A model generated the notes under the pieces. The model did no database searches and was not told where the DNA came from. It was given only the letters and a program-made list of their open reading frames with translations. 64,000 nt of DNA from an uncultured Planctomycetaceae bacterium (GTDB lineage: Bacteria > Planctomycetota > Planctomycetia > Isosphaerales > Isosphaeraceae), in contig CAWIAD010000002.1 of the NCBI GenBank assembly GCA_963833985.1, forward strand, positions 5,792,001 through 5,856,000. Reading direction: 5' to 3'. Numbering within the stretch: the first letter of the stretch is position 1; every line of letters starts with the position of its first letter. Position numbers and translations under genes: made by a program. Below, in pieces: positions 34,327 to 63,843 of the stretch.

Positions 34327-37300
34327 ATGATCGCCAATGATTCCTTCGATTTCTTCTGTGTGACACCCTGCGGTCTGTGGGACCCGGGCATTGCCATTGC
34401 AGCCGCTCGTGCGGGCGCAATCGGCATACTCGATCTCACTTACGCAAGCGAGGCCGCGGGCGTGCCGGAACCGGTGGAGCGGCTTTCCAGGCTCGCGCAG
34501 TGGGCGCCACGGCCTGTTGCTGCACGGCTGGCTGGGAGAGGTTGGCTCAAGGGCGCTGGAGGTCCTCGCACATGCCGAGGCGATCCTGCTCACCTGCGAG
34601 CCTCTGGACGTACTGGCAGGCACGCTTGCCGCCTGCCGCCCGGCAGCGCGTCGAGTGGGACTCATCGTCACCAGCGAGCCCGAGGCGCGAAGGGCCGCGG
34701 AGCTCGGCTTCGACTTCGTCGTGGCCAAGGGGCACGAGGCGGGGGGACGGGTCGGGGAGGAGACGACGTTCGTGCTGCTCCAGCGGCTGGTGCCGCTGTT
34801 GGGGCTGCCCGTTTATGCGTGGGGCGGCGTCGGGCCGGCCACCGTTGCGGGCTGCCGAGTCGGCGGCGCGGCCGGCGCGGTACTCGACTGGCAGCTCGCA
34901 CTGGCCCGGGAATCCTCGCTGCCCCCGGCGCTGCGGCGTGCGGTGGCGGCCATGGACGGCAGCGAGACGACAACAGTTCTCTGTCCGGGGGGCGGGTCCT
35001 TCCGTCTCTTCGCGCGGGCTGCCACCCCTGCCAGGGACCAGCTTGCGGCCCTTTCCGAAAAGCTGGCCGCCGAGGACTCCACCGATTCCGAGGCCTGGGA
35101 CCGGACCATCAGCCGTCTGATGAGCGAGCCGCGCATCAGCAGCCGGCTCTGGGCCATCGGCCAGGACGCCGCCTTTGCGTCCCATCTGGCGGGCGAGGTC
35201 TCTTCAGTCGCGCGGCTTCTCGACCAGTTCCGTGAACCGATCGCCGCCCTGGAACGCGGCGAGCTTGAAGCCGACGTTCTGGGGCCTGGTGCCCCGCTGG
35301 CCCGGTCGCACGGCACGGCATACCCGATCTTACAGGGGCCGATGACGCGCGTCAGCGATGTACCCGAGTTCTGTGCGGCCGTGGCCGACGCAGGGGGGCT
35401 GCCGTTCCTGGCGCTGGCGCTGTTCCGAGAGGCACAGACACGCGATCTGTTGACGCGCACCGCGGCTTTACTGGCTGGCCGCCCCTGGGGCGTCGGCATC
35501 CTCGGGTTCGTGGACCGCGAGCTACGCGCCGAGCAGACGACCGCCGTGCTCGCGGCACGGCCGCCTTTTGCCATCATCGCGGGCGGCCGTCCCGACCAGG
35601 CGGCCGTCCTCGAAGCTGCGGGGATTACCACCTACCTGCACGTCCCCTCGCCCGACCTGCTGGCCAGCTTCCTCGAGGCGGGCGCGCGGCGGTTCGTCTT
35701 CGAGGGCCGGGAGTGCGGGGGCCACGTCGGCCCGCGAAGCAGCTTCGTGCTCTGGGAATCGATGATCCGCGTGCTGGTCCAGTCCGGGCTTCCAGATGCG
35801 GAGATGCGGAAGATCCACGTGGCGTTCGCGGGCGGCATCCACGACGCGACGAGCGGGGCGATGGTCGCGGCGATCGCGCAGCCGCTGGTGAAGCGCGGCG
35901 TGAATGTGGGCGCCCTCCTGGGCACCGCGTACCTCTTCACCGAGGAGATCGTCAGCTCGAACGCCATCGTTTCCCAGTTCCAGGAGATCGCCAGGAGCTG
36001 CGATCAGACCATCCTGGTCGAATCGGGCCCGGGACACGCCATCCGCTGCGCGGATACCAAGTACGTTCGCTACTTCGAGGCCCGCAAGGTCGAGCTGATG
36101 CGCGCAGGCCGTCCCCAGGAGGAGATCCGCGAGGAGCTCGAGGCGCTGAACATGGGGCGTTTGCGGATCGCCTCCAAGGGAATTGTCCGCCAGCCGGCAG
36201 CCGCGTCGGGCGGCGACGGACTGGTGCGTGTGGATATCCGCCAGCAGGAACGCGACGGCATGTACATGATCGGCCAGGTGGCCGCACTGCGGCGGAACAT
36301 CTGCACGATCGCGGAGATGCACCGCGACGTCTCTGCGGGTTCCGCCGGCCGGCTCGCGACCTGGACGAGCCTGCCCGCGGTTCCGCGGATCGACGTGGAG
36401 CCGTCTGCCCCGCCCCTGGAGATCGCCGTCGTCGGCCTCTCGTGCCTTGTGCCAGGCGCCACGACGATCACCGAGCTCTGGGACAGCATCATCCAGAAAC
36501 GCGACCTGATTGCCGAGATCCCCCCTGACCGGTTCGACGTCGACCGCTGGTTCGACCCCGACCGCGGCACCCGCGACAAGTTCAACAGCCGCTGGGGCGG
36601 CTTCCTGGCCGAGGTCCCGTTCGACCCGTTCAAGTTCGGCATCCCGCCGGCCGCCTTGCGGAGTATCGAGCCGGCGCAACTGCTGGCCCTCGAGGTGGTC
36701 GACCGCGTGCTCCGCGATGCCGGCTATCACGGCCGCAACCCTGCCAGGGCTCGCACCGGAGTGATCTTCGGTGTGTCGGGAGGAGCGGCCGACCTGGGCT
36801 TGAAGTATGGCTTCCGAGCCCTGCTTCCCCATTATTTCGAGAACCCCGGAGCGCTGCTGTGGGACCAGTTGCCCGAGTGGACCGAGGACAGCTTCGCGGG
36901 CATCCTCGCGAACGTGCTGGCGGGCCGGATCAGTAACCGGTTCGACCTGGGCGGCCCCAACTTCACGGTCGACGCGGCGTGCGCCTCGTCGCTGGCGGCG
37001 GTGTACCTGGGCTGCCGCGAACTGGCGGCCGGAACCAGCGACATGATGATCGTCGGCGGCTGCGACACGGTGCAGAACCCCTTCGCCTACCTCTGCTTCT
37101 CCAAGAGTGGTGCGCTCTCGCCCCGGGGCCGGTCGCGGGCATTCGATGCCAGCGCCGACGGCATCGTGATCAGCGAGGGGCTGGCGGCCGTGGTCCTCAA
37201 GCGGCTCGCCGACGCCGAGCGCGACGGCGATCGCATCTACGCCGTCATCCGGGCGGTGGCAGGCGCCTCCGACGGCCGCAGCAAGGGGCTCACCGCTCCC

Positions 37301-40300
37301 CGGCCGGAAGGCCAGATGCTCACGCTCCGCCGCGCGTACGCCCAGGCCGGCTTCGGACCCGAGACGGTCGGCCTCTTCGAGGCTCACGGCACCGGCACGG
37401 CGGTCGGCGACGCAACCGAGTGCCGGACACTGGCAAACCTGCTGGCCGATCGTGGGGCAGCCCCTCAGTCCGCGGCGGTGGGCAGCATCAAATCGATGAT
37501 CGGCCACACCAAGTCCACGGCCGGCGTCATCAGCCTGATCAAGACGTCGCTCGCCCTCTACCACCGGGTGCTCCCACCCACACTGCATGTGGAACGGCCG
37601 AACCCGAAAGCCGGCATGGACGGCGGAGCGCTCTACGTGAATACGGAACTGCGGCCGTGGATCCGCAACAGCCATCCCCGGCGGGCCGGCGTCTCGTCGT
37701 TCGGTTTCGGCGGCACGAACTTCCACGCCGTGCTGGAGGGCTACGAAGATCAGGCGGGCACGCCGGCGCGGGAGCCGGCCCACCGCAGCCGGTCGGCCGA
37801 GCTGGTCGTCCTCTCGGGCCGATCGACGGCGGATCTCGCCGCGCGGCTGCGCGGCCTTGCCGGCGACCTGAAGCGGGCCGTCGCGGGGGGAGCCAGGCTG
37901 GAGCTGGCCGATGTCGCCTATACCCTCTTCCGGCGCTCGCCGCTGGCGGCGGCCGGGCCCCGGGCCGCGATCGTGGCCACCAGCATCGACCAGCTCCAGG
38001 AAAAGCTGGCGGCCGCGGCCGACGGCCTGGAGGCAAACGAATCACCGCGTCCCGAAGCGCTGCTCCAGCGTGACTCCGGCCCGGCCTGGCTCGGTCGCGG
38101 CACACCGCTGGCCTTCCTGTTCCCGGGCCAGGGCGCGCAGTACCCGAACATGCTCCGCGAGCTGGCCACTGAGTTTGCCGAGGTCTCCAGCACCTTCGAG
38201 CGCGCCGACGCGATCCTGGGCGGAGCCTATCCCCGCCGGCTCAGCGAGCTCATCTTCCCACCCCCCGCGTTCAGCGACCAGGAGCGGCTCCAGGCGGCCG
38301 AGGCCCTGAAATCGACCGATGTCGCGCAGCCCGCGCTGGGGGCGTCCGGTCTGGCCCTGCTCCGCCTCATGGCCGCCTTCGGAGTCCGGCCCGACCTGGT
38401 CGGCGGACACAGCTACGGCGAGCTCGTGGCCCTGCACGCCGCTGGAAGCCTGGATGAAGCGACCCTGTTCCAGCTTTCGCTGGCCCGCGGCCAGGCGATG
38501 CATCGGGCGGCCGGCGGCTCCCCAGGTGCCGACGCCGGCACCATGCTCGCCGCCCATGCCGACCGCGGCGAGGTGCTCCGTGCGATCGAGGGCTGTGAGA
38601 ACGTGTGGGTCGCGAACCACAACAGTCCCCGCCAGACGGTGATCAGTGGGTCCAGGTCGGGGATCGCCGGCGCGGCCAGGCGGCTCGAGGCCGCGGGAAT
38701 CAACACCTCGGCCATCGCGGTGGCCTGTGCCTTCCACAGCCCGATCGTGGCCCCGGCCCGCGAGCAGTTCGAGCAAGCGCTGCGGCAAGCCGAGATCCGC
38801 CCCCCTGCCCTGCCGGTGTACAGCAACGTGACGGCCGCGGCCCACGCCGCCGATCCCGATCGGATCCGTGAGCTCCTGAGCGAGCAGATCGTCCGCGAGG
38901 TTCGCTTCGTCGACGAGGTGGAAGCACTTTACGAGGCGGGAGCGCGGGTCTTCGTCGAGCTTGGCCCCGGCGCGGTGGGAGCCAGGCTGGTGAGCCAGAT
39001 TCTCGGCGATCGGCCACACGTGTCGATCGGCTTGCAGGCGCGTGGGACCGGCGGGCTGGAGCCGTTCCTCCGCGGCCTGGCGGAACTGGTGCTGCATGGT
39101 GTCGAGGTCAACCTGGAGCGGCTCTACGAGGGCCGCCGGCTCGAACTCCTCGATCTTGGCAATCCGTCAGCACTTGCCCCGCCCGCGCTGCCCGCGCACA
39201 CCTGGTTGGTGGACGGTGGGTCGGCCCGGCCGATCGGCGAGCCACGGAAGCGAGCCCTCCGCGCAACCCTGGTGTCACCGGAAGAGGCCCGCAACGGGGC
39301 AAACGCGGCTGTGCAACCAGCCGGCAACGGGCACGCGCCGGCCGCGGCGCACGCCGGCCGGAGCAACGGTGAGCCCCGACACGTCGCGAACAACGGCCAC
39401 GATAGCGCACACAGCAACGGTAGCGCACGCAGCCACGGTGCCAGCAACGAGCAGGCAAGCCACGGCAACGGAACACACGACGATGCGGTGGCCCACAAGA
39501 ATGGGGCCAACGCCCATGCGGCCGCTCACCCCGGTGATTCGAGGCTCACGACCATGACAACGGCCAAGCTGAAAAACCCCGCGCCCTCCAACGGCCACTC
39601 CCACCCTCCGGACAGCGCAGCCCCCGAGTCGAGGTCCCAGGTTGTCCCGAACGGGCAGAAGACGAGCAACGGTTCCCCGCCGGCCCGGGTCCCCGATCAC
39701 CCGACCGGGGCACCGCTCCAGGCAGACCTGGATGCCTACGCCGATTTTCAGAGGACGATGAGGCGGTTCATCCGGGCCCAGAACTCGGTCCTCGAGGCCT
39801 TTTTCGATCGCGCCAGCTCCGGCGGAGCAGGCCTGGATCTCGGATTCGGCCAGGCGGCAACGGTTGTGCCGTTCGCGGTGAACGGGCATTCCGAAGCACA
39901 GCCTGCCGCCCAGGCAACACCATCGGTTGCAATCGACATCCCCCCCTTCATGCCGCAACCGGTGCGAAACGGCAGCACCCACGATGAAACGGCCGCGGCT
40001 CCGACTCCGGTCCAGCTTCAGCCAGTTGCACCCTCACTGCCGCCCCCGACCGCCACGGTTGTGACGAGTGGACTCGGCGTGGCGGAAGCGGAACACCTCC
40101 TGCTGGAGATCACCAGCGAGCGCACGGGTTACCCTGCGGAGATGCTGGGTCTGGACGCGAACCTGGAGGCGGAGCTGGGGATCGACTCGATCAAGCGGGT
40201 GGAGATCATCGGCGCGTTCCGTCGCCGGGCGTTGCCCGGACTTGGCGAGCCGCCGGGGTGGTTCATGGAGGAGATGAGCGCGGCGAAGACGCTGCGGGCG

Positions 40301-43300
40301 ATCCTCGCGGGGGTGGCGAAGCTGGGGGCCGCGGACGGCAGCGCGGCGGCGTCCCCGGTCGCACCACTGCTTGCGGCCGCGACGGTGCCGGGCCCGAGCC
40401 CCGCGGACGCGGAGGGCATGCTGCTGGAGATCACCAGCGAGCGCACGGGTTACCCCGCGGAGATGCTGGGTCTGGACGCGAACCTGGAGGCGGAGCTGGG
40501 GATCGACTCGATCAAGCGGGTGGAGATCATCGGCGCGTTCCGTCGGCGGGCGTTGCCGGGTCTTGGGGAGCCGCCGGGGTGGTTCATGGAGGAGATGAGC
40601 GCGGCGAAGACGTTGCGGGCGATCCTCGCGGGGGTGGCGAAGCTGGGAGCCGCGGACGGCAGCGCGGCGGCGCACCCGGTCGCACCACTGGTTGCGGCAG
40701 CAACGGTGCCGGGTCCGAGCCCTGCGGACGCGGAGGGCATGCTGCTGGAGATCACCAGCGAGCGCACGGGTTACCCGGCGGAGATGCTGGGTCTGGACGC
40801 GAATCTGGAGGCGGAGCTTGGGATCGACTCGATCAAGCGGGTGGAGATCATCGGCGCGTTCCGTCGCCGTGCGTTGCCCGGTCTCGGCGAGCCGCCGGGG
40901 TGGTTCATGGAGGAGATGAGCGCGGCGAAGACCTTGCGGGCAATCCTCGCGGGGGTGGCGAAGCTGGGGGATCAGCCATCCGCCGCTTCCACGACCGAGG
41001 TCGCAGCGCCGGTCGAGACGCGTGACCACCACGCCGGGATGACCCTGGATGCTTGCCCCAGGTGCGTGGCGGAAGCATTCGAGGAACCTCAGGGCGCCGA
41101 CGCATGCAGCGTCCTGCCCGAGGGCGTCTGGATTCTCACGGACGACGGTCACGGCTACGCGCCGATGCTGGCCCGGGAGATCGAGCAGGGGGGCGGCCGC
41201 CCGGTTCTCCTGCGGGATGCCGATCTGAGCACTCGCGAGGCGGTGGCGAGAGTTGTCGACCCCTTGCGGCAGGAAGGAATCGCCGGAGTCATTCATCTGG
41301 CGCCGCTCCGCCTGCGCCGAGCTTCCCGGGCATTGCGGCCGAGGACTGGGCCGGCCGCGTGAATATCGAATGGAAGGGTTTGCTGTTCTTGATGCAGGCC
41401 GTTGTGCCCGAGCTGCGCGCCGCGAAGAACGGGTCGTTCTCCGTCGTCGCCTTGACGAGCGGTGGTGCGCAGTTCGGGGGCGAACCCGAGCTGGAGCTGA
41501 CCTGCCCGTGGCGCGGAGGGATCGCGGGAATGCTCAAGACGGCGGCCCGGGAATGGCCCGAGGCGCGGTTCCGCACGGTCGACGCCGACGAGCTTCCGGA
41601 GCCGGCGGCCCTGCTTCTGGAACCGGTCACGAGCGGCTCCGTGGAGGTGGGCTACCGGGGAGGCCGCCGCTTCGCCTTGCGGGTCATACGAAAAGAAATG
41701 TCCCCCAATCCGGGGACGCTCGAAGGTGTCCTGGACGCACGTAGCGTTGTGCTCGTGACCGGCGGAGCCCAGGGCATCACGGGCGAGGTGGTCCGCGAGC
41801 TGGCCGCGCACTCGCGTGCGACGTTCGTCTTGCTTGGCCGCTCGCAGCCGCCCGCTGCCGCTGAGGACTCCGAGACCGCGGCGCTTTCGAGCGTCGCCGA
41901 GCTCCGGCAAGCCATTCTCAGCCGCACGCGACGGGAAGGCCTCACCCTCGTTCCCCAGCAGATTGAGGCGAGGCTCCAGCGATTGCTCAGGGAGCGCGAG
42001 ATCCGCGCCACCTTGAAGGCAATCCGGGCGGCCGGCTCGAACGTCGAGTACCTCTCGTGCGATGTGCGCGACGGCGCACAGCTCGAGGCGATCGTCGCGA
42101 TGGTTCGCGAACGGTTCGGGGAGATCGACGGAGTCATTCACGGAGCCGGCATCATCGAGGATCGGCTCATCGCCGACAAGCTGGTTGACTCGTTTGACCG
42201 GGTCGTGGGCACCAAGATCGATCCGCTGCTGACGCTTCTGCCCGTGCTGGATGCCGCGCGTTTGAGATTCATCCTGCTCTTCTCGTCGGTGGCCGGATTC
42301 TTCGGCAACCCGGGCCAGGTGGATTACGCGGCCGCCAACGAGACACTCAACCGCATCGCTGGGCGGCTCCGCCATCTGGGTTACAAGAAAGTGGTTGCGC
42401 TCAACTGGGGCCCCTGGACTGGCGCCGGGATGGTCAAGCCGGAAGTGGCGCGGCAATTCGAGTCGCGCGGGGTTCCCATGGTCACGGTGGAAGCCGGCCG
42501 GCCGGCGGTCCTGCGGGAGCTTGCCAGCCCGGGCGACGACGCCTGCGTGATCCTGGGGCCAGGCCCCTGGGTTGAGCCCGCGGATCGCATCCGCTCCCGG
42601 CGATCCTCGGCGGAATCCACGCCACTCCTTGCGGGGCATGCGCTGGCACACCTTGCGGGCAGCGTGGTGGAGGCCTCGGTCATTCTCGACCCGTCCCGCC
42701 AACCTTATCTCAACCACCATGAGATCGACGGCAAGCCGGTACTTCCCCTGGCCGTCGCCATGGAGTTGATGGCCGAGGCGGCCGCGGCCGCCGAGCCCGA
42801 ATGGCATGTCGTCGAGATCCAGAACGTGCGGATGTATTCGGGAGTGGTCATTGGCGGTCGACCGCGTACGGTCGCGGTCCGCGCCGAGCCCATCGTCCGG
42901 AGCGAAAGCGAGGGCGAGTGGCGGGTGCGCCTGACCGATCCGGCCCAGCCGGGTCGGCCGCTCTACGAGTCGATGGTGCGGATGGCCGCGCAGCGTCCCG
43001 TGCCGCCGCCGGCACCGGCCATCGATCGCATCGCCGATCCATTTACCATGAGCGCCGCGGAGACCTACATCCGCTGGCTCTTCCACGGCCGTCTGCTGTG
43101 GGTGATCGAGGATCTCAGGAGCCTCGACTCCAGCGGCATGGACGCGATTGTTCGTCCGTCGAGCCCGCAAGATTGCCTGGGCCGGCACGTCGGCCGCGGC
43201 TGGCTCATTGACCCCATCGTGCTGGATGCCGGCCCCCAGATCGCCACGTTCTGGAGCCGCAGGATGTATGACACGACCGTGCTGCCCAGCCGGATCAAGT

Positions 43301-43494
43301 CATTCGAGTGCTACGGCTCGATGGCGGGAGGGCCGCTGGAGATGATTCTTCGGGTGCACAACGTCGAGGCCGAAGGAAACCTCCTGGAGGCCTCGGTCTG
43401 GTACCTGCGGGACGGCCGCCTGATCGGCAAGATGGTGGGCCTGGAAAGCGCGGGGAATTCCAATTTGAACCGCATCACCGGGAGCCCGCGCTGA
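34327..43494 (+). CDS. PKS1: iterative Pfa/HglE-like type I PKS, (NMO/FabK-like ER)x2-KS-AT-ACPx3-KR-DH; frameshifts at ~34500 and ~41310
   Basis: ER: QGPMTRVSD, EGRECGGHVG, FAGGIHD; KS: DAACASS, EAHGTGT, KSMIGHTK; AT: GHSYG, CAFHS; three copies of LGIDSIKRVEI; KR: VTGGAQGI, YAAAN; DH: HEIDGKPVLP. Confidence 0.93.
40100..40968 (+). repeat. Three near-identical tandem ACP-encoding repeats with a 321-bp period
   Basis: ctgctggagatcaccagcgagcgcacggg occurs at 40100, 40421 and 40742. Confidence 0.95.
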
Positions 43495-46400
43495 TGCCTC
43501 CAGCCCACACCCGCACGCAAGACATCAGCCCAGGGGAAGACATTGCCATCGTCGGTATGGCGTGCATCTTCCCGGGCGCCGATTCCCTTGAAAAGTACTG
43601 GCAGAACATCCTCGGCCAGGTTGATTGCGTGTCGGATCCGCCTCCGAAACACAGCGCGGAGTGGCGGACCGCCACGGACCCACGCAGCTCCGAGCCGGTG
43701 TACGCTTCACGCGGGGGCTTCCTGGGCGACCTCTGCCGCTTCGACCCGACGCGCTTCGGCGTGCTGCCCGCGAGCGTGGACGGCGGCGAGCCCGACCAGT
43801 ACCTGGCGCTCCGCTGCGCCTTCGAGGCCCTGGCCGATGCCGGCGTCCCGCAGCTTCCCCTGAACCGCCAGCGCACGGCCGTGATCATGGGCCGGGGGGC
43901 GTTCATCAACCGGGGCCTGCTCGCCTGGATCAATCACGGAGCCGTCGTCGACCAGGTGCTGGGGCTGCTCCGCGTTCTGGAACCCGACCGGGGCGAGCAG
44001 GAGCTGGCCGCCCTTGCCGCCGAGCTGAAACGGAACCTGCCACCCTTTACTTCAGAGTCCGTTCCCGGCCTCGCTCACAGCGTCCTCGTCGGCCGCATCG
44101 CCAACCGCCTGGATCTGATGGGTCCGGCGTACACGCTCGATGCCGCCTGCTCCTCTTCGCTCCTGGCGGTGGAGCACGGCATTCGCGAGCTCAGGTCCGG
44201 GCACTGCGACGCGGTCCTCGCCGGCGGCGTCCAGGTGAGCACGCCGGCTCTCATCTACCAGACCTTCTGCAAGATCGGCGCGCCCAGCCGGAGCGGTCGA
44301 ATCGCCCCCTTCTCGGCGACCGCCGATGGGACCCTGCTCGGCGAGGGCTGCGGGATCCTGGTGCTCAAGCGGCGCAGCGACGCGGAGCGCGATGGGAACC
44401 GGATCTACGCCGTGGTGAAGGAGGTCGGCGTCTCCTCCGACGGCAACGGGGCCGGCATCCTCGCCCCGCGCACCGAGGGCCAGCAGCTGGCCATGCGTCG
44501 CGCTTACGAGCAAGCCGGACTATCGACCGGGTCGATCGCTCTTCTGGAAGCCCACGGTACGGGAATTCCGCTCGGCGACCAGACGGAAATGAACTCTCTC
44601 GTGAACTGCTTCGGCGGCCGAGACGCGGAGGGGCCGCGGATCGCGCTGGGCAGCGTCAAGTCGATGCTCGGCCACCTCATCCCCGCCTCGGGTGCCGCGT
44701 CGCTCATCAAGGTGGCCCTGTCGCTGTACCACCGCACCCTGCCGCCCATGCTGCATGCCGAGACGCCGCACCCCGGGTTAGGCCTGGAGAAGACGCCGTT
44801 TTACCTGTCCACGCAGACCAGGCCCTGGATCCATGGCGCAGTCGATTCCCCGCGTCGCGCAGGGGTCAATGCGTTCGGCTTCGGCGGCATCAACACGCAC
44901 GCCATTCTCGAGGAGCACCAGGCCGCCGACGAGACGACCCTGCCCAGGCTGGAGAAGGAATGGCCCGTCGAGCTCGTCGTCGTCTCCGCCCCGGACCGAG
45001 CGTCCTTGCCCGCGCGGTTGAACGCCCTGGCCGGCTGGCTGGAGCAGGCAAGCGGCGTCTCGCTCCTGGACGTCGCGGCCGCCTGTAGCGCCGAACCGGG
45101 CGTTTGCCGGGTTGCCATCGTGGTCCAGAGCCTCGACGACCTGAAGAAGAAGCTCCTGCACGTCGCGCGGCTGCTGGAGCAGCCTGAGCGGCAGAAGATC
45201 CAGGATCGCAGCGGTCTCTTCTGGTACGCCGAGCCGCCGGGCGCGACGGGCCGCGTCGCGTTCCTCTTCCCGGGCGAAGGGGCTCAGTACGCGGGGATGC
45301 TCGGGGAGCTGTGCCGACATTTCCCCGAGGTGCGCCGGGAGTTCGATCTCACCGATCTGGCTCTGACGCTTTCGGATGCCAACCTGCCGCTCTCCCGTCA
45401 CATCTACCCGCCGCCCGGCCTCGAGCAGGGAGCGGATGCCGACCTGCTCGATCTCCAGGGGGCGGTGGTGGCCGTGACGGCGGCCAGCCGGGCGCTCCTG
45501 GCCCTGATGGGCCGGCTGGGCATCCAGGCGGATGCCGTCCTCGGGCACAGCAGTGGCGAGTACGGCGCCCTCCTGGCCGCGGGCGTATACGATCTCTCGG
45601 ACGAGGAAGAGCGCGTGCGGATGATCGGTGGAGGCGCCCGGAACGCCGTCCGCCTGGCCAGTTCCGGACTGGTTCCCGAAGCGGTCCTGACGACGATCGG
45701 TGGTGCAGATCGCGGCGCGGTCGAGCGCGTGCTCGCCGGGTCCGGCGGCCGGCTCACCATCGCTGTGGACAACTGCCCCAGCCAGCTCGTCCTCGCGGGC
45801 GACGAGGCGGCTTCGGCCGCGGCCGTCGCGGCGCTTCAGGGCAAAGGGGGGCTCTGCCAGCGGTTGCCCTGGGGAAGGGCCTACCACACCGAGGCTTTTA
45901 CCCCGGCCTGTGCCATCGTCGCCGAATACTTCCAGACCCTGCATTTCCGCAAGCCCAGGCGAGAACTCTGGTCGTGCGCCTCGGTCTCGGTGTATCCCGA
46001 AGATCCCGAGGCCGTTCGCGAGCTGGCGATCAGGCAGTGGCGAACCCCCGTACGCTTCCGCGAGACAATCCAGGCCATGCACGAGGCGGGAGTGCGCGTC
46101 TTCGTGGAGGTCGGCCCCCGCGGGAACCTCTCCGCATTCGTATCGGATACCCTGGGCAAGCAGCCCCACCTCGCCATTCGGATGGATGTTCCACGAAAGG
46201 GGGGCATCGAGCAGCTCTGCCGGGCCGTCGGCATGCTGGTCGCCGCCGGAGTGTCCGTCAACCTGGCGGAACTCTACCACAAGCGATCTCCGCGCCTCCT
46301 GGACCTGTCCGCCACTCCGCCGAAACCCCCCCGCGTTCAGCCTCCGCTCAGCCAGGTGATGCCGGAACTCAAGGTCTCGGAAGCGGTCGCCCGGCGCTGG

Positions 46401-53175: not shown

Positions 53176-53179
53176 GACC

Positions 53180-54211: not shown

Positions 54212-54523
54212 ATGTCCCGCGAAACGCTCAGCGCAAAGCACACTCAGCAGGAAGTGTTCCAGAACATCGTCGGCATCCTCCAGGACATGACCAGCGACTG
54301 GGAGGCGGCCTACGACGGAGGGATCCAGCCCGGGACGCGGCTCATCGCCGATCTCGGATTCGAATCGATCGACGTCGTGCAGCTCGTGGTCGCCATCGAG
54401 GAAGCCTACCAGAGCCGCTCTCTGCCGTTCGAGAAGCTGCTCATGGCCGACGGACGCTATGTCGATGAGCTGTCCGTGAGCCAGATTGTTGATTTCCTGG
54501 TTGCCAACCTGAACGCGCAGTGA
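54212..54523 (+). CDS. Stand-alone acyl carrier protein
   Basis: GGAGG ribosome-binding site; TRLIADLGFESIDVVQLVVAIEE...SVSQIVDFL. Confidence 0.88.
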   Translation: MSRETLSAKHTQQEVFQNIVGILQDMTSDWEAAYDGGIQPGTRLIADLGFESIDVVQLVVAIEEAYQSRSLPFEKLLMADGRYVDELSVSQIVDFLVANLNAQ

Positions 54524-54534
54524 GGATCCGTGGG

Positions 54535-54561: not shown

Positions 54562-54675
54562 ACCTGGACCCCGACCACCCGGAGTACCGGCGCAGGCAAG
54601 CTTATCTGCTCATGACACGACACCGAGGGGCGAGCCGGCCAGGAACGCCAGCCCCCGCGCTTTCGAGGCGAGCTT

Positions 54676-56254
54676 ATGAATTCGACGATCTTGATCGGCA
54701 TCGATGGGGCCACCTTCACGATCCTGGACCGCCTGATCGCCGAGGGCGCCATGCCCACCCTCAAGGCGCTCCAAACCCGGGGCGTACGCGCCGAACTCCT
54801 CTCCACGCCCCACCCGCTGACTCCCCCGGCATGGACCACGCTCATGACCGGCCGGAGCCCGGGCAATCACGGCATCTTCGACTTTCTCCGCAGCGAGGTC
54901 CGCGGGAACGGGGCGTTCTTCACGCTCAACAATTTCCGCGACATCCAGTGCGAGACCATCTGGTCGATCATCAGCCGGCAGGGAGGCAAGGTCCTCTCGC
55001 TCGGCTTCCCGCTCATGGCCCCTCCTCCCCCGGTCCACGGCGCGATCGTTCCGGGCCTGCTCTCCTGGCGCCATCTAAGACGCAACGTGCATCCCGCCGG
55101 GCTGTATGACGAGCTCGATGGCGCTGCCCGGACTGGACGCCAAGGAGCTGTCATGGGATTTCGAGAAGGAGAAGGCGATCCGGTTCATGCCCGAGGAGGA
55201 ATTCGCTTCCTGGGTGCGGCAGCACACCGCGCGTGACCGGCACTGGTTCGCCATCCTGCGCCATTTGCTCATGAAGGAAACCTACGACCTGATCGCCGTG
55301 ATGTTCGATGGCACCGACAAGCTCCAGCACGGCTGCTGGCGCGTGCTCGATCCGGAGTGCGCTCCGGAGCATCCCAACGAGGCCGAGCGCGACATTCGCG
55401 AAGCCTGCGTGGAGTATTTCCGCCATCTCGATTCGCTGATCGGCAAGATCATCGAGCTGGGCAACGCGGACGCCCGGGTCTTCATCGCCTCGGACCACGG
55501 CTTCGGCCCCACCGAGCGGTTCTTCCGCGTGAACAAGTGGCTGGAGCAACAGGGTTACCTCGCCTGGAAGTCGCCGGGCAAGAAACGGAAGCCCAGCGAG
55601 AACCTTTATGTCGACCTGGACTGGGAGCACACGGTCGCCTTTGCACCCAGCATGGCGACCAACGGCATCCACATCCGGGTGCAGGACGAGACGAACCCGA
55701 CCGGAGTGCCGGCGGCGGAGTACGAATCCTTCCGGGCCAAGCTGATGGCCGAGCTCCGTGAGATCCGCGACCCGATCAGGGGCGTGCCCATGGTGCGCGA
55801 CATCTTGCTGCGCGAGGAGGTCTTCCCGGGAGTGCACCAGGGGAAGGCGCCGGACCTGACGCTGGTGCTCTACGATTACGGGCTGATCGCCACCTCGGAC
55901 GAGGAGCCCATCATCGAGCCGCGCGACAAGATCGCCGGAATGCACCGTCCCGAGGGCGTTTTCTACGCCTGCGGCCCCGGCATCATCGAGGGCCGGGCGG
56001 TCGAGCAGCAGTCGATCACCGACATCGCGCCGACCTTGCTGTACAGCCTGGGCCTGCCGATCCCGGCCGACTTCGAGGGGGGGATCATCGCCTCGGCCTT
56101 TGAACCGGGGCATCTCGCCGAGCATCCGGCCACCATCGGCCCGGAGACCATCGCGCCGGCCAGCTACGTGGCCCGCCGGGCAGCCCACGAGCTGGAGGCC
56201 GACGCCGAAGAATCGGTCATCGACCGGCTGCGTGCACTGGGTTACGTGGAATGA
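54676..56254 (+). CDS. Alkaline phosphatase superfamily protein, copy 2 (paralogue of 48882-50470); frameshift at ~55118
   Basis: IGIDGAT, PLTPPAWTT, DKLQH, SDHGF, GMHRPEG, C-terminal DRLRALGYVE. Confidence 0.9.
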
Positions 56255-58077
56255 CGGAAGCGAGGATCGCGCGTTCCCTTCATCGATCGAACCGTTCATC
56301 CAGGCCGGTGAGGTCGGTCAGTGCGAGCGGTCCGAAGGCTGAGGAGACTTTGACGGTGGGCGCGAGCTTGCAGGGTCAAGTTGCGATCGTCACGGGGGGC
56401 GGCTCGGGCATTGGCCGGGCCGCCTGCCTGGCCCTGGCACGCGCAGGTGCGCAGGTGCTCGCCGTGGGCCGCAACCGCGACCGGCTGGATGAGACCGTCG
56501 CCCTCATCGAGCAAGAGCCCGCGCCCTGCCCGGTCCGTGTGCGGGCGCTTCCTTGCGCTGCCGACGTGCGGGAGGAGGCCGGCGCCCGGGCCATGGCCGA
56601 TCGTGCGCTCGACTCGTTCGGGCGGATCGATATCCTGGTGTGCGCGGCCGGGATTCTACGGTCCGAGGGCGCTGCGGTTCGCCCCGTCGCCCGTCTGCCC
56701 TTGCAGGCCTGGAGCGAGGTGCTGGACATCAACCTGCGGGGCACGTTCCTGTGCAACCATGCTGTCCTTCCGGTGCTTCTTGCACAGCATTCCGGGAACA
56801 TCGTCAACCTGTCGTCCATGGCCGCCCAGCTCGGGTTCGCCTACGATGCCGCCTACTGCGCCTCGAAATGCGGGATCATCGGCTTCAGCGAGTCGCTGGC
56901 CCAGGAAGTCCAGTCGCGCGGGGTCCGCGTGCAGGTGCTGGTGCCCGGGGCATTCGCGACCGCGCTCATGCACCGGCGCTTCAACGGGGGGGAACAGGGC
57001 GGCACGGAAAACCCAATGCTCCGCCAGATCCCTCCCCCCGCGCGTGGGGGACATGATCGTCCATCTTGTGGCCATGGCGCCCGAGGTTCGCCTGGTGCGC
57101 CCCGTGATCACGCCACTGGTCTGGCCCACGGATACGGGCTGGCGGAGCCAGGGCTCGCGGAATATCGACCGGGACCAGGGCGGCGATGCGTTCTCGCAAC
57201 GAGCTTGCCACTCGAAAGACCGCCCTGCCATACTAGAGTGCCCTACGGAGCATCCCATGTCCGAGTATGCGCTGACATCATCGAGCAACCTGGACGGCCG
57301 CGTCGTCATCGTCACCGGCGGAACGGGCGGGCTGGGCCTGGCCACGTGCCGCGCGGCCGTTCTGGAAGGTGCCTCCGTGGTTGTCGCGGATCTGAGCGAC
57401 GAGCGGCTGGAGGCGGCCGTCCGCGAGCTGGGTTCCCTGTGCAAGCCAGGTGCCGGCGTCCTGTCCATGAGGGTCGACGTCCGCTCGGAGAGCGACACCG
57501 CGGCCATGGCCGAGAAGACCGTGGAGCGGTTCGGCCGGATCGATGCCCTGGTCGCCTGCGCGGGGATCCTCCGCAAGTGTGGCACCTCGCCCAAACCGGT
57601 GGTGTCCATGACCGTGGAAGAGTGGGATGAGATCCTGGGAGTGAACCTGAAGGGCATCTTCTTGACGAACCGCGCCGTGCTCCCACGGATGATCGAGCAG
57701 CGCGAGGGGACGATCATCAATGTCTCTTCAACGTCGGGCCTGACCGGCCGGGCGCATGACGGCGCTACTGCGCCTCCAAGTTCGGAGTCAACGGGCTGTC
57801 CAAGTCCATCGCCGACGAGGTACGAAGCTACGGTGTGAAGGTTCTGGCCATCATGCCCGACGCGATCGATACGCCGATGTGGGAACAGAACCACCCTGTC
57901 CCTCCCCCGGGCAACGCCTTACCGCCGGAGCATGTCGCCGACCTGATCCTGTTCTTGCTCAAGCAACCCAGGGATGTGGTTCTGTCCGACCCGGTGATCA
58001 TGCCGCTGGGAGTGCGCCGCCGCAAGCCGGCGGGCCGGCCGGCCCCGGACGTGAACTCCTCACACCTCCCCGCGTGA
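56251..58077 (+). CDS. Tandem SDR oxidoreductase(s): two SDR domains, apparently one reading frame after correcting indels at ~57035 and ~57765; the second domain has its own GGAG and ATG at 57257
   Basis: Domain 1: VTGGGSGIG, YCASK; domain 2: VTGGTGGLG, and YCASK after correction. Confidence 0.85.
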
Positions 58078-58152
58078 TCGATCAATCCGGAGGGTTGGCA
58101 TTGTTGCTCAGCGACTCGTCCCTCCAGTACCCGGATGCAGAAGGTCACTCCC

Positions 58153-59238
58153 ATGTCCAAGATGCTTCTCGAGTTCCTGGTCGCAGCGCTCCTGTCGACC
58201 GTCGCCGGAGTCGTCTATTTCATGTTTTTTGACAACTTCATGGACCTCCAGAGTGCGGACGCCGCGCAGGTGTATCGGAAGAAAGCCCGAGAACGTTTGG
58301 CCCCGGAACCGGTCCAGCCCCGGGTGGGTCCCCGGCGGGGCATCCTGGGAGCTCAGCCGGCAAGGTCCAAGGTGGCGTCCGGCGACGATGAGCATTTTCT
58401 GAACCACGGCGGCCGTCAGCGCCGCTTCGTCGTACACCTGCCCAGAGGCTACGACGGCTCGAAAGTCCTGCCCGTGGTGCTCGCTTTCCATGGCGGGGGC
58501 GGCCGTGGCGAGTCCATCCAGCGGCAAAGCCAGCTCAGCCGCGTCTCTGATCAGCACGGCTTCATGGCGGTCTATCCGGACGGCACCGGACGGGCCAACC
58601 TGCTTACCTGGAACGCGGGGACCTGCTGCGGCCTTGCGGTCCGCCAGAACGTCGACGACGTCGGCTTCGTGCGGGCCATGGTCGATGAGCTGAACCGGCT
58701 TTACCACATTGATCGCAATCGCATCTTCGCGACGGGCATCAGCAACGGCGCCATGTTCTGCTACCGACTCGCGTGCGAGGCGTCTGACCTGCTCGCAGGC
58801 ATTGGCCCGGTTTCCGGAGACCAGGGTGTCGAAGGCCCGCGTCCGTCCCGCCCCGTCCCGATCGTTCACTTTCACGGGCTGAAAGACCCCAACTGCCCCT
58901 ACCTGGGCGGAGTGGGTCCCAACGCGGTGACCAAGGTCTGGCACCGTCCGATCCCGGAGACCATCGCTTTCTGGGTTCAGGCGAACCATTGCCAGCCCAA
59001 GCCGACGGTTTCCGCTGAGCCTGATTTCACCAAGGAGTCCTACAGTCCCGCGCCCGGACAGAAGGGCAGCCCGATCGTGCTCTACAAGCTGACCGAAGGC
59101 GGGCATACCTGGCCTGGCGGCGTCGATCTCACTCCCCGCCTGGGTACCGGCAAGCTGATCGCGAGCGTCGACGCCAGTACGCTCATGTGGAAATTCTTCG
59201 AATCCCTGCCTCCCCGCGAGGCCCTGGCGGCCCAGTGA
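58153..59238 (+). CDS. Membrane-anchored alpha/beta-hydrolase (PHB depolymerase/LpqC-type esterase)
   Basis: N-terminal transmembrane helix; LAFHGGGG, WNAGTCCG, DDVGF, GISNGA (nucleophile elbow), HGLKD, GGHTWPG. Confidence 0.88.
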   Translation: MSKMLLEFLVAALLSTVAGVVYFMFFDNFMDLQSADAAQVYRKKARERLAPEPVQPRVGPRRGILGAQPARSKVASGDDEHFLNHGGRQRRFVVHLPRGYDGSKVLPVVLAFHGGGGRGESIQRQSQLSRVSDQHGFMAVYPDGTGRANLLTWNAGTCCGLAVRQNVDDVGFVRAMVDELNRLYHIDRNRIFATGISNGAMFCYRLACEASDLLAGIGPVSGDQGVEGPRPSRPVPIVHFHGLKDPNCPYLGGVGPNAVTKVWHRPIPETIAFWVQANHCQPKPTVSAEPDFTKESYSPAPGQKGSPIVLYKLTEGGHTWPGGVDLTPRLGTGKLIASVDASTLMWKFFESLPPREALAAQ

Positions 59239-59303: not shown

Positions 59304-59885
59304 ATGACCCCGACGAACAACGAGCGGATCACAATTGTCTCCGGATTGCCCCGGTCGGGCACCTCCATGATGATGCGGATGCTTGAAGCCGGGGGAATTG
59401 CTCCGCTCGTGGACGCGGTCCGCGGCGCCGACGCGGACAATCCCAACGGCTACTACGAGTTCGAGCCGGTGCTCAAGCTGGAACGTGATTCGTCCTGGGT
59501 TCCCCAGGCGGCCGGCAAGTCGGTGAAGATCGTTTACCGACTGCTCTATCACCTCCCCGCAGCGTTTCATTACGACGTCATCTTCATGAAACGCGAGCTC
59601 AGAGAGGTGATTGCCTCGCAGGAGGTGATGCTCCAGAGGAAGGGGAAGATCTCCGGCGGCATCAGCGAGGAGAAGCTTGCCGAACTGTTCACCAAGGAGC
59701 TCAACCAGTTTTACAAGTGGATCGGCGAGCAATCCAACTTCCGCATGCTGCCGGTGAACTACAAGGAAGTCATCGACGAGCCTGCGAGAACGGCCTCTGA
59801 AGTCTGCCGCTTCCTCGACAAAGAACTCGATCAGGCCGCCATGGCCCGGGTTTGTGAACCGTCGCTGTACCGCCAGCGCCGCTAG
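59304..59885 (+). CDS. Sulfotransferase-like P-loop protein
   Basis: IVSGLPRSGTSMMMRML (PAPS-binding loop), DNPNGYYE, MKRELREVIASQ. Confidence 0.8.
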   Translation: MTPTNNERITIVSGLPRSGTSMMMRMLEAGGIAPLVDAVRGADADNPNGYYEFEPVLKLERDSSWVPQAAGKSVKIVYRLLYHLPAAFHYDVIFMKRELREVIASQEVMLQRKGKISGGISEEKLAELFTKELNQFYKWIGEQSNFRMLPVNYKEVIDEPARTASEVCRFLDKELDQAAMARVCEPSLYRQRR

Positions 59886-60012: not shown

Positions 60013-61408
60013 ATGATCCAGGTGAACGGAAATGGCCGCAGCAGTACGAGCCCCGGGGGCCGCGACAACGGCTCGAAGAGTGGGTCCGACTTGCTGCCCT
60101 CCTTCGCTCCGGTGATCAAGGATTTTGGTCAGTCGACGGCGGGCCACGTGACGCTGGCGAAGAGCCTTTATCTTCGCGGCCGACATCAGGAAGCGCTGGC
60201 GGCGCTCGAGTCGGCACTATGCGAGAACCCTGAGCTGGCCCAGGCGCACTTGCTGAAGGGCCTGGTCCTGGCGCAGCGGGCCGAATTCGAACGGGCCACG
60301 GAAAGCCTCACCTACGCAACCCGGCTGGACGAGTCGTCAGCCGACGCGTGGATGGGCCTGGCGTATGTCCGGCTCGAGCTCGAGCGGCTCGAGCCAGCGC
60401 TTGCGGCGGTCGTCCGGTCGGTCGCTCTTGACGAGAACAATGCGAACGCCCTGCTGCTACAGGGAAACATCCTGGCGGCGCTGGACGCGCCGTGGCGAAG
60501 CCATCGCCGCCTACCGCCGCGCCGTACGAGCCAATCCCCAGCTCTCCGTGGCTCGCTACAAGCTTGCGAACCTGCTGGCGGAGGCGGGCGAGAGCGATGA
60601 GGCCATCCGCCAGGCCATGGTGGCGCTGCGGCTCAATCCGGTGAGCAGCAACACGCGGCTGACTCTGGGCAATCTCTACCACCAGCTCGGACGCCTCGAC
60701 GACGCTCTCCAGGAGTTCAGGGCGGCCGCGCAGCTCGGGCAACTTGCTCCCCAGCAGGCACTCGGATACGAGAAGATGGGTCGGGTGTTCCAGGAAATGG
60801 GAGAGAAGGCCGGCGCCATGGCGATGTTCCAGACATCGCTACGGCTCAATCCCAAGGCCATCTTCTGCTATTTACACCTGGCGCGAATTCACCGCGGCGA
60901 CGGGCGCCTGGCCGAGGCACTGGAAATGTCGCAAGCGGCCGTCCAGCTCGATCCCCGCTTTCCTGAAGCCGTCACCTTGCTGGCCGAGCTTCGTGGGCTC
61001 TGCGGGGAGAACCCGCCGGCGTTGACTCACGCGCCCTTCGGGAGCGCTCGTTCCACCAACGGCCACGCCAGGCACTTGCCGGCAAACGGTGTGGCTCACG
61101 CCTTTGCGCCCCTCTCCGATCTGGCTGACGGCCCTGCCGTGGAATGCGCCGTTGTGGGCGAAGCTGAGGCGGATCTTGGCACTTACTCATGCACGACAGA
61201 CTCGGGGCTGACCTGCTCGGTCCATCCATTTTGTGTCACCATCGCGCCCCGCCCATCGAGCCATGTCAACTCGACGGTGGAACGAGATTGCGACTTCCCC
61301 GCAAATATCTCCCTGGTGGCGGCATGCGAGGGTGGCCCTGAACATGCAGCAAATCTCTACCGTGGCCAGACGAGCGGACAGGGGAACTGTCCCGCCCGGC
61401 CCGTTTGA
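60013..61408 (+). CDS. TPR-repeat protein with a Cys-rich C-terminal tail; frameshift at ~60490
   Basis: Successive TPR units (EALAALESALCENPELAQAHLLKG, AMFQTSLRLNP, AVQLDPRFPEA). Confidence 0.85.
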
Positions 61409-61496: not shown

Positions 61497-63843
61497 ATGG
61501 CAAGCACAACCATCGATCGACCCAGGCTTCGCCCCGGACTGGAGATCTTGCGGATCGGTCCGCGAGAATTCGTCCTCCGCGACCGCCAGAGCGGTGCTCG
61601 GCTCCATGTGGGCGCCGAGGAGCGATACCTGCTGCACCTGATCGAGAGGTCACCGTCGCTGGATGCGATCTGCCGGGCCTTCGAGGCGAGATTTCACCGT
61701 CCGCTCGCCGCCCGCCATGTCCTTGAGTTCTGGGAGCAACTGCACCATCTTGGCCTCACGGACCTGGGCCCAGCGGCGAGTGAACGGGCAGGGCAACCAG
61801 GTCCGCCAGGCGCCGTCGAGCCGCTGCCGGCGCCGTCGGCTCCCCGCCCTCTCTCGAGTCAAGATCCGCATGCGAATCTGAACCTGCTCTTCGACCTGCT
61901 CGTCATGCTTTTCGGCTGGGTCTTCCATCCCATCTGGCTGGTGCCTGTGGTGACGGCAGCCGGGGCGGCGTCGATTGCACTGTACCTGAACTGGGACCGT
62001 TACGCTGGCGAGTTCACTTACGCCTTCCAGGTGGTCCCCAAGCTGCCGTTGCTCGTGTTCGAACTGGTCCAGACCATCGTTCTGGTCAGCTTCACCCGGA
62101 CCGTGCTGATGGCGATGGTTTGCCGCCGCTTCGGCGGCAGGATCACCCGGTTTGGATTCCGGCTCCTCGGCTACGTGGTGCCCACCTTCTACATCGAAAG
62201 CAACCTGTTCGAGGTGCTCACCGACGACCGCGGCAAGTGGACCTGGCTGGGCATCGACTTCTGGACGCGCATCAGCATTGGCTCGCTTGGCATCCTGGCC
62301 ATGTCGGCGAGTCGCCCCTACTCATTCCAGGCCCTGTTCTGGGCGGGGCTGATTGCCCCCTGTCTACTCGGTTTATTTTATCATATTATCATTTTTTATG
62401 AGCAAAGCAGTAGCTACTGGCTCTTGAGTTTCTACGCTGGAGACTACAACCTTCGGCCGCGCGCACTGGCCGAGACGCAGGCCTGGCTGGCCGGGAGAAC
62501 GTCGCCCGAGGCGCTCACCGAGAACGAGCGGTACTGGTTTCGCGCCTTCGGCCTGGGATTCTACGCGTATCGGGTGATTGTCGATACGCTCATATGGCTG
62601 TACCTCGGCCACTGGCTGATCACGAAGTACGAGAGAATCGGCGCACTGATCCTTGTCGCCGGAATCATCTGGGCCTACCGGGAGTCGATCAGGAGAGCAT
62701 TCATGAGCATCGAGAACTTCAGATGGTATGTGCGCACCGGCGGCAAGTGGCAGTTGCGCTGGGCAGCGCGGAGCGCTCCTGGCGGCCGTCGTGTGCCTTG
62801 GCTACATGCCCTGGGATTACGAGATCGTCGGCGAGTGCCGCGTCTTCCCGTCGGAGCAGTCTGGCGTGCGGGTGCGGCTTGAGGACGAGATCCAGTCGGT
62901 GTACGTTTCCGAGGGCGACCATGTCGAGGTCGGGACCGTGATCGCCAGGTTGAAAGGGGTCAAGGCGCGGTCCGACGTGAAGGTCCTGGAGGCGAAGCTG
63001 GCAGCCGCCAGGGCGAACCTGGACATGTACCGTAACGGGTACCGCCCCGAGGACATCAAGCTGGCCGCGGAACAAGTGGAGATTGACAGGCTCCAGTACG
63101 ATTTCGCCCTCAAGGACTGGGCCAGGACCGTGGATCTGGAGCGGAAGAACTGGGTGAGCGCCAAGGAGTCGGACCAGAAGATCCTCGCCCTGGGGGTTGC
63201 CCGCGAGACCCTGGTCGAGGGCAAGGAGAACTACTCCAAGTACCAGAAGGGCTACCGTGAGGAGGAGGTCCGCCAGGCGGAGGCCGACTACAAGAGCGTC
63301 GAGGAACAGCTCGACTACGCCCGGCATATGCTGTCGTGCACGCAGGTGGTCAGCCCGCTCAGGGGCCAGGTCGTCTCGGCCTACATGAAGGAGAAGGTCG
63401 GCCAGCCGACCAATGTCGGCGATCTCGTCGCCGTCATCGCCAACCCCGACAAGCTGTGCGCCGAGGTCGCCGCCGACGATGCAGCCGCGCTCACCGTGAA
63501 AGTGGGAATGCCGGTGAAGATCCGCCTTTACGGCACCTATGGAAGACTGATGACAGGCAAGGTCCGCAGGACGGCTCCCGCCGTGGAGCGGTACGGCAAG
63601 TTCGGCAATTCATCGGTTCGCAACGATCCCGAAACGAGCGCCGAGGAAGCGGCCAACTACAGGTATCGCAACCCTTATTACCACATGCGCGTCTATGTGG
63701 ATATGGATGAGATCCCCGACGGCTTGACCACCGAGATGACCGGCTACGCGCGCATCTTCGTCCAGGAAGACGTGCTCTGGCGAGCGCTCGCGCGACCCAT
63801 CGCGAAATTCCTTCAGACCGAGGTTTGGTCGTGGCTCCCCTGA
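61497..63843 (+). CDS. Fusion of a PqqD/winged-helix-like N-domain, a peptidase M50-like membrane domain lacking catalytic motifs, and a HlyD/membrane-fusion domain; frameshift at ~62770
   Basis: RPRLRPGLEI...FVLRDRQSG...EARF...FWEQLHHLGL; VCRRFGGRITRFGFRLLGYVVPTFY; HlyD: VYVSEGDHVEVGTVIARL, coiled coil, VVSPLRGQV, EMTGYARI. Confidence 0.8.

Follow-up and report, generated by a model that had tools for sequence, protein, structure and literature searches.

An orphan polyketide synthase pair in an uncultured planctomycete with a co-conserved tailoring and putative export module

Among the lipid synthase types listed by Shulse and Allen in 2011, Type M (Renibacterium) and Type O (Dinoroseobacter, Gloeobacter, Parvularcula) pair one polyketide synthase (PKS) of the order enoyl reductase (ER), ketosynthase (KS), malonyl acyltransferase (MAT), several acyl carrier proteins (ACPs) and ketoreductase (KR) with a second of the order KS, acyltransferase (AT) and phosphopantetheinyl transferase (PPTase), and their products are given there as uncharacterised (PMC3098273). 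Azotobacter ArsA has the order ER-KS-MAT-ACP-KR (PMC3098273) and makes C23-C25 acyl chains (PMC4824345), and a fused pfaDA gene with a pfaBC-PPTase partner has been noted as uncharacterised (PMC13291983). We analysed a 64,000-nt stretch of DNA from an uncultured Planctomycetaceae bacterium (contig CAWIAD010000002.1 of assembly GCA_963833985.1, positions 5,792,001 to 5,856,000; hereafter the window), in which positions 34,327-63,843 of the + strand hold 12 co-oriented genes once frame switches are read through. The operon joins a known orphan synthase core to a conserved tailoring and putative export module of which we found no description in the literature searched, a scope that left out most subscription journals.

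Our tentative reading, which we regard as plausible but a little short of probable, is that the operon is a copy of an orphan cluster that builds a long, mostly reduced chain, places a phosphate or sulfate ester on it while it is bound to a free ACP, optionally methylates it, releases it and exports it through an M50-HlyD protein.

The synthase core and its described relatives

PKS1 (34327..43494, + strand) was read from Pfam and NCBIfam matches as a FabK/PfaD-type ER in two repeats followed by KS, AT, three ACPs, KR and dehydratase (DH), with frame switches near 34,500 and 41,308; its homologues are single open reading frames (ORFs) of about 2,800-2,900 aa. It carries the motifs DAACASS, GHSYG, xAFH, YAAAN and HxxDG. 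An earlier model-made note on the same letters (the sequence-only reading) had named tandem LGIDSIKRVEI ACPs and a FabK/PfaD-type ER. Both were borne out: there are three such ACPs (300-nt repeats, 321-nt spacing), and the N-terminal ER, of the nitronate monooxygenase (NMO)/FabK type, lies in two stretches. The DH domain in which PKS1 ends had not been listed.

PKS2 (43494..48813, + strand, frame switch near 48,285) was assigned the order KS-AT-DH-PPTase from Pfam matches and motifs. Its KS (KS2) has Cys-His-His intact, and the cysteine motif is present in 37 of 39 aligned KS2 rows, the other two being truncated. The AT signature of the family (AT2) is non-canonical, GHS[S/T]G / xR[A/G]YHT, and reads GHSSG and xRAYHT in the window. 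PfaB is described as a chain-handling AT that hands on long chains (PMC12895367), and by analogy AT2 may handle chains in the same way.

Gene 1 and gene 2 of Types M and O have the same ER-KS-MAT-ACPn-KR and KS-AT-PPTase orders as PKS1 and PKS2, and relatives of the cluster were found in Gloeobacterales, Parvularculaceae and Rhodobacterales. Unlike the published rows, both window PKSs contain DH domains, and as listed in PMC3098273 Types M and O comprise the core only, without the module of ACP, alkaline phosphatase superfamily protein (AlkP) or sulfotransferase, hydrolase, propeller and M50/HlyD genes. The ArsABCD system (Type P; Azotobacter vinelandii, Beijerinckia indica) shares the ArsA-type layout with PKS1, and the partner of ArsA is a DH-PPTase, like the end of PKS2, but type III PKS genes give way in the window to another active KS-AT, a free ACP, AlkP, the propeller and a putative exporter of another kind. 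Membership of Type P was rejected, as the operon ORFs include no type III PKS and Beijerinckia has such enzymes between synthase and PPTase.

The sequence-only reading had placed the core among Pfa/HglE-like secondary-lipid synthases, which holds for the Pfa-related core but not for its nearest kin, Types M/O and ArsA rather than PfaA-D or HglE proper. Pfa and HglE synthases share the tandem LGIDS ACPs and PfaD-type ER with the window, which differs in its N-terminally fused ER, in a second KS that keeps its cysteine and so is no chain-length factor (CLF), and in a DH of the PKS type rather than the FabA type. A canonical Pfa polyunsaturated fatty acid synthase was rejected on similar grounds (no KS-CLF-DH2 subunit, KS2 cysteine kept, ER fused and not a separate PfaD), and so was an HglE/hgl island, as no Pfam or NCBIfam match to an HglT glycosyltransferase or HglB-type reductase was found in the operon.

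In Streptomyces lividans and S. coelicolor, the bsn pathway joins an acyl chain to an anionic head group (PMC12159101, PMC4943196), and the short branched acyl part of its product, bisenarsan, comes from a two-gene PKS (PMC12159101). Bisenarsan differs in its arsonate head, made by BsnM/N/J, and in its short, methyl-branched chain (PMC12159101). Homologues of bsnM, N and J (EPSP-synthase, mutase and decarboxylase) are absent from the Pfam/NCBIfam annotations of the operon ORFs. The domain layout of the two bsn PKS genes is presumably similar to that of the window pair.

In a KS tree, a single clade of 37 rows (support 98/93) unites the window KS2 with 36 others that likewise come from propeller clusters, although this is weak evidence, with only two KS2 outgroups from outside propeller clusters and rows of fewer than 330 aligned residues left out. 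The window KS1 falls among the KS1s of propeller clusters (97/96), apart from ars-like and Streptomyces KS1s, and the host's own Pfa/Ole-type KS branches apart. Full-length matches to the ER-KS part were found in five plasmid records, including a Beijerinckia ars-like cluster (52% identity) and a Streptomyces PKS1-PKS2-ACP-hydrolase cluster. The frameshifted PKS1 piece matched TIGR02813 at 940 bits, below the cut-off of 1,010. The PKS core is of a known kind.

Co-conservation and spread of the accessory module

A search of a genome collection with the propeller gene returned 385 relatives. The best 80 of the 385 loci were analysed, and the 47 of at least 20 kb were treated as full-length, with the 33 shorter loci left out of the counts on 47. 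A PKS lies within 10 kb of the propeller in 44 of the 47. The same loci hold a thioesterase-like alpha/beta hydrolase (37), AlkP (35), ACP (34), esterase (28), M50/HlyD (28), fused-type methyltransferase (22), tetratricopeptide repeat (TPR) protein (21), cytosolic sulfotransferase (19), short-chain dehydrogenase/reductase (SDR; 18), second methyltransferase (10), B12 radical S-adenosylmethionine (SAM) enzyme (7) and CoA-transferase (7), and AlkP or a sulfotransferase is present in 43/47. PKS-less loci number three full-length and two shorter ones, and in all five genomes PKS2 was found elsewhere. The conserved layout is PKS1-PKS2-ACP-AlkP-hydrolase-propeller; methyltransferases and SDRs are optional.

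The reverse test started from KS2 and covered 31 metagenome loci. Among the 18 that extend at least 4.9 kb downstream, 16 have AlkP after KS2; among the 10 that extend 10 kb, 6 have the propeller. The sequence-only reading had made its proposal depend on co-conservation of the downstream genes with the PKSs, which both approaches recovered. Because the accessory genes are co-conserved with the PKSs across loci, it is nearly certain that this is a real biosynthetic cluster family.

Its distribution is patchy and wide-ranging. Titles of the best 80 loci span nine phyla in all, namely Planctomycetota, Acidobacteriota, Pseudomonadota, Thermodesulfobacteriota, Cyanobacteriota, Actinomycetota, Nitrospirota, Tectomicrobia and Rhodothermales, and cultured carriers include Neptuniibacter marinus, Rhodovulum bhavnagarense, Rhabdochromatium marinum, Tumidithrix helvetica and Cyanobium sp. 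Of 400 host-phylum genomes sampled, 2 have the propeller, in both cases with KS2 on the contig that carries it, and 4 have a close KS2. A search of 40 relatives recovered the propeller in only 2; its alignment included the methyltransferase, and 37 of its 41 matches were mostly generic methyltransferases. The operon had been called "planctomycete" from the letters; the family is not specific to that phylum, being rare in it and spread over the nine.

Two subfamilies carry further genes. One, largely from Desulfobacterota and Scalindua (L012, L017, L020, L021, L033, L038, L043, L047, L058 and L075), adds a B12 radical SAM enzyme and mostly also a double CoA-transferase III. The other, a subset of L095, L119 and L129-L150, has a glycosyltransferase, an SDR and methyltransferases between hydrolase and propeller. 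In one host-phylum genome of 41% GC (G153:C6:30,001-62,000, L122-L123), PKS1-PKS2-ACP lies before a flippase, a distant AlkP, a deacetylase and glycosyltransferases.

Alternatively, the lipid made by the PKS pair could anchor or carry a glycan at the cell surface, as in Wcb/Rkp-like systems, with AlkP joining it to the sugar through a phosphodiester. Two observations would fit: the polysaccharide locus of G153, where flippase and glycosyltransferase genes and a distant AlkP follow the PKS pair and ACP, and the glycosyltransferase carried by eight loci of the second subfamily. We nevertheless consider a glycan anchor highly improbable, as neither the window nor its close relatives encode a glycosyltransferase, a flippase or a capsule ABC transporter.

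The host genome carries two further clusters. One (G000:C1:2,393,000-2,408,000, L092) has PKS1-PKS2-ACP-hydrolase, an SDR, two methyltransferases and a MacB-type ABC transporter, with no ER, AlkP or propeller detected. The other (G000:C2:2,280,000-2,297,000, L094) is of the Pfa type, with PfaD-, PfaA- and PfaBC-like genes beside an OleB-like hydrolase, and we take it to resemble the planctomycete polyunsaturated-hydrocarbon locus.

The ester step, the propeller and the putative exporter

The free ACP (54212..54523, + strand; motif LGFESID), assigned by Pfam and alignment, belongs to a distinctive family with invariant W30, S52 and Y83. Of the 46 loci with this ACP, 37 have AlkP as the next gene, and in 7 the ACP is itself fused to a sulfotransferase of the 3'-phosphoadenosine-5'-phosphosulfate (PAPS) type; of the remaining two, one has another AlkP-superfamily gene next and one M50-HlyD. 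The fusions are 430-480 aa long and come from Neptuniibacter, Chromatiaceae and others (L028, L032, L036, L045, L051, L055 and L066). In five ACP-sulfotransferase genomes, no full-length cluster AlkP was found (no match in 4, only N-terminal partial matches in 1), and the propeller, as positive control, was recovered in 5/5. In five AlkP genomes, a search for the stand-alone sulfotransferase family, which had no positive control and so carries little weight, gave 0/5. Because the ACP is followed by AlkP in 37/46 loci and fused to a sulfotransferase in 7/46, the two enzymes likely carry out one and the same step, acting on a hydroxyacyl chain bound to an ACP, as judged from gene order and sequence.

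Two cytoplasmic AlkPs of the nucleotide pyrophosphatase/phosphodiesterase (NPP) type are encoded in the window, both on the + strand. AlkP1 (48882..50470; PF01663, frame switch near 49,785) shows GLDGA, LTPQAW, DxxDxxQH, SDHGF and GTHHPHG, and AlkP2 (54676..56254; Pfam and tblastn, frame switch near 55,120) has LTPPAW. Neither has a signal peptide or hydrophobic segments. Across the family, the threonine of LTPxAW and the full two-metal ligand set are invariant in 38/38 rows, and the nearest solved relatives, by profile search and by fold search with an intact orthologue, are Xanthomonas NPP and phosphonoacetate hydrolase. The threonine site, the metal ligands and these relatives point to phosphoryl chemistry rather than that of a formylglycine sulfatase. 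Formylglycine sulfatases carry C/S-x-P-x-R at the motif site, and that candidate was rejected because TPxAW stands there throughout the 38-row alignment.

AlkP might alternatively be a housekeeping hydrolase of the assembly line that edits phosphopantetheine on the ACP or clears nucleotide by-products. The product would then be a branched or hydroxy acid, neutral or carboxylic, that leaves the cell as a bioactive ester, as with bisenarsan. In keeping with this, the nearest solved relatives are phosphodiesterases, the PKS1-PKS2-ACP-hydrolase platform occurs without AlkP on the Streptomyces plasmid and in the host's second cluster, and a two-gene Streptomyces PKS supplies the short branched acyl part of bisenarsan (PMC12159101). 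Such a role leaves unexplained why a sulfotransferase replaces AlkP at the ACP and why two paralogues, 35-50% identical, are kept in 8 of the 80 loci, and we find it improbable.

The window also encodes an accessory PAPS-type sulfotransferase (59304..59885, + strand; Pfam, motif PRSGTS), of a type seen in only 3/80 loci. Among 120 longer homologues of its family, 42 are fused to a related serine AlkP and 3 to an adenosine 5'-phosphosulfate (APS) kinase; the host genome has an APS kinase. The phospho- or sulfo-ester head group proposed from the letters thus survives as a plausible anionic ester step, with the qualification that the AlkPs are NPP-type threonine enzymes and the sulfotransferase of the window is rare in the family.

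Sulfation of PKS-made chains has precedents. Curacin CurM follows an ACP-sulfotransferase-thioesterase (ACP-ST-TE) logic, and the sponge swf cluster, a predicted alkyl sulfate producer, has a B12 radical SAM gene (PMC3908369). A sulfotransferase acts on a PKS-made chain in CurM/olefin synthase and swf, as one may in part of the cluster family, and the B12 radical SAM gene of swf is shared with 10 of the 80 propeller loci. The PKS architecture of these systems differs, and in the cluster family the sulfotransferase is optional, with AlkP mostly in its place. The ACP-sulfotransferase fusion proteins recall CurM ACP-ST.

The propeller (50535..53175, + strand, frame switch near 52,000) is fused to a degenerate-looking class I methyltransferase, as judged from a structure model and from intact homologues of 800-900 aa, in agreement with the fusion first proposed. 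It has no Pfam or NCBIfam match; in sequence searches it matched no solved structure as a single protein and one unrelated structure (E 1.7) as a profile, and it matched no plasmid. The model (pLDDT 88) found only generic propellers in fold searches, and a predicted complex with the free ACP scored 0.01. One propeller cluster bears the automatic Atlas name 'putative exo-alpha-sialidase', which lacks Pfam support and was not adopted. Residues R65, R135, R193, R458, E335, N454 and N473 are invariant; by the usual propeller register, the four arginines would sit at strand ends facing one side, and their placement on one face suggests an arginine-lined anion pocket. The family comprises 1,043 clusters at E up to 1e-30. 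A propeller of the family was once found fused to a PlsC-type acyltransferase (P0172).

These residues also bear on a different outcome, in which the sulfate or phosphate would be a leaving group only, lost either by decarboxylative elimination to a terminal alkene on release by the hydrolase, as in CurM/olefin synthase, or by propeller-catalysed alkylation to an ether, ester or C-C bond, so that the end product contains neither S nor P. The invariant arginines and acidic residues of the propeller could serve such a reaction, and the alkylating propeller CylK is in the fold list (Z 22.8). It ranks only 43rd there, below generic propellers with Z up to 25.9, and no kinship with CylK was found by sequence profile. 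CylK and BrtB are both known as alkylating enzymes. Neptuniibacter ACP-sulfotransferase fusions beside a thioesterase-like hydrolase mirror the curacin ACP-ST-TE arrangement (PMC3908369), but up to four stand-alone sulfotransferases per locus suggest that sulfates are retained, and a dedicated exporter fits a charged product. We judge loss of the group possible, though unlikely.

The last operon gene (61497..63843, + strand; Pfam/NCBIfam, frame switch near 62,765) encodes an M50-fold membrane domain without HExxH and an HlyD adaptor, which we infer to be one fused protein. Relatives of 750-860 aa are usually fused as well, with the two parts split in a few. The M50-like/HlyD fusion had been anticipated from the letters, but its M50 part is a pseudo-protease: HExxH is present in 1 of 30 copies, and the window reads SFTRT at the site. 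An active M50 site-2 protease was rejected, as the motif is missing in 29/30 copies including that of the window. A TolC-family gene follows M50-HlyD in 4/80 loci, and we take the protein to be a putative exporter.

State of the window copy and the proposed pathway

The remaining genes, all on the + strand, are an intact second SAM methyltransferase (53180..54082; Pfam, motif LDLACGTG; 19/80 loci), a double SDR with TGxxxGxG and YCASK in both halves (56251..58080; Pfam and motifs, frame switches near 57,040 and 57,765; homologues of 551-556 aa), a poly(3-hydroxybutyrate) (PHB)-depolymerase-like serine esterase with an N-terminal hydrophobic segment (58135..59238; Pfam/NCBIfam; 39/80) and the TPR protein (60013..61408; Pfam, frame switch near 60,490; 26/80). 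Every gene that the sequence-only reading had placed in its run of about 12 co-oriented, tightly spaced genes, the double SDR among them, was found on the + strand at the positions it gave. Intergenic gaps range from -4 to 152 nt, with overlaps of 1 nt between PKS1 and PKS2 and 4 nt between AlkP2 and the SDR.

Upstream, the AT-richer divergent intergenic region before PKS1 (33410..34326) is a likely promoter region; it holds two weak sigma-70-like matches against 0.5 expected, which is no evidence of function. Terminator-like matches in the window (11 vs 8.3 in shuffles) were not above the shuffled background, and tRNA and Rfam searches gave no match. Signature domains of the planctomycete host (PSCyt1/PSCyt2/PSD1, DUF1559 and DUF1501) lie further upstream. 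A second PHB-depolymerase-like esterase, convergent on the - strand, follows directly after HlyD (window 63,977 onwards; L001:1977-3089); it is 46% identical to that of the operon and could be part of the cluster. A serine recombinase and transposase-like ORFs (L001:11,777-13,390 and beyond; window-equivalent 73,800-84,000) come about 10 kb after the operon, a possible sign of a mobile region.

Ten frame switches interrupt the operon, near 34,500, 41,308, 48,285, 49,785, 52,000, 55,120, 57,040, 57,765, 60,490 and 62,765. Each amounts to one base by GC-frame analysis and tblastn with intact homologues (8 from tblastn, 2 by inspection). A search for sequencing runs covering window positions 48,001-58,000 listed none. 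One explanation is that the window copy is a decaying pseudo-operon, in which case the family would be real and this strain would make no product; the excess of switches over the genome control and the loss of the hydrolase gene speak for it. Decay is hard to reconcile with the absence of premature stops inside coding parts in 117 alignments, with breaks that are all single-base frame switches and with catalytic motifs that are intact wherever checked across the operon. In the control, 112 genes from a same-genus genome were aligned to the host genome; 16 frame switches occurred in 134,793 aligned nt, 15 of the 112 genes were affected, and rpoB and rpoC were unbroken. Upstream window genes are broken too, a homologue with 87% identity stays in frame across the propeller junction but is broken elsewhere, and relatives L004-L006 lack the hydrolase as well. 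The frame switches are probably assembly errors, which are a likelier cause than decay, and we consider a pseudo-operon very unlikely. The upstream genes split in this way encode a DUF5117 protein, DUF1501, a GH106 rhamnosidase and a pyridoxal phosphate (PLP) decarboxylase (window 1-2,420; 16,915-18,356; 25,964-29,687; 31,965-33,402).

If the operon does direct synthesis of an anionic ester lipid, the PPTase would first prime the ACPs, and PKS1, by analogy with ArsA, would iterate malonyl extension with KR, DH and flavin mononucleotide (FMN)-type ER to give a long chain. PKS2, with its active KS and non-canonical AT, would add the last extension or extensions and pass the chain to the free ACP, much as PfaB hands on long chains. 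There the SDRs would set hydroxyls, and one hydroxyl would receive an anionic ester from AlkP, acting through a phospho-threonine-type intermediate; the ACP-fused PAPS sulfotransferase would take over this addition in seven other loci. The methyltransferases and the local sulfotransferase could decorate the chain further. A thioesterase-like hydrolase, found in 58/80 loci, would then release it, in this host in trans, for example from the second PKS cluster: the host's best hydrolase match (38%) sits in the PKS1-PKS2-ACP-hydrolase cluster on contig C1, and that copy might serve the operon. The arginine-lined propeller would bind the anionic product, the protease-dead M50-HlyD, with TolC in some loci, would export it, and the anchored esterase would trim it outside.

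Several observations weigh against this pathway. NPP-type enzymes are known chiefly as hydrolases, so AlkP may remove a group rather than add one. Three of the seven fusions come from related Neptuniibacter loci and amount to a single event. Nor is the swap strict, since AlkP and a stand-alone sulfotransferase occur together in 11 full-length loci. Secreted multidomain proteins that combine the propeller with PKD, TSP3, FlgD, T9SS or S8 protease domains are also found (P0121-P0259), so the propeller may only bind, without catalysis. Two of the four KS2-positive genomes in the 400-genome sample have no propeller, and one such genome, G153, has its PKS pair in a polysaccharide locus. The thioesterase-like hydrolase is missing from the window operon, as it is from three close planctomycete relatives. 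Finally, the window copy could be decaying, because its frame-switch rate is about three times that of the control (10 in 28.5 kb vs 3.4 expected; P ~0.003-0.02), a comparison in which the operon was inspected more closely than the control genes.

Alkyl sulfates are reported to escape standard saponification-based lipid analysis (PMC3908369), and this could be why no product is on record. We also considered a broader claim, which we regard as doubtful: that the clusters make an unrecognised class of anionic surface lipids in at least nine phyla, with three new parts, namely an ACP-dependent threonine AlkP that transfers phosphate or sulfate groups and is interchangeable with a PAPS sulfotransferase, an arginine-lined propeller enzyme for anionic alkyl esters, and a protease-dead M50 domain turned into the inner-membrane channel of a HlyD/TolC lipid exporter. 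The conserved accessory module gives testable chemistry for Types M and O, which were listed in 2011 without a product. The proposed pathway would give functions to a large AlkP subfamily now annotated only as predicted phosphohydrolase, to a propeller family without a Pfam entry, and to the pseudo-protease/HlyD fusion.

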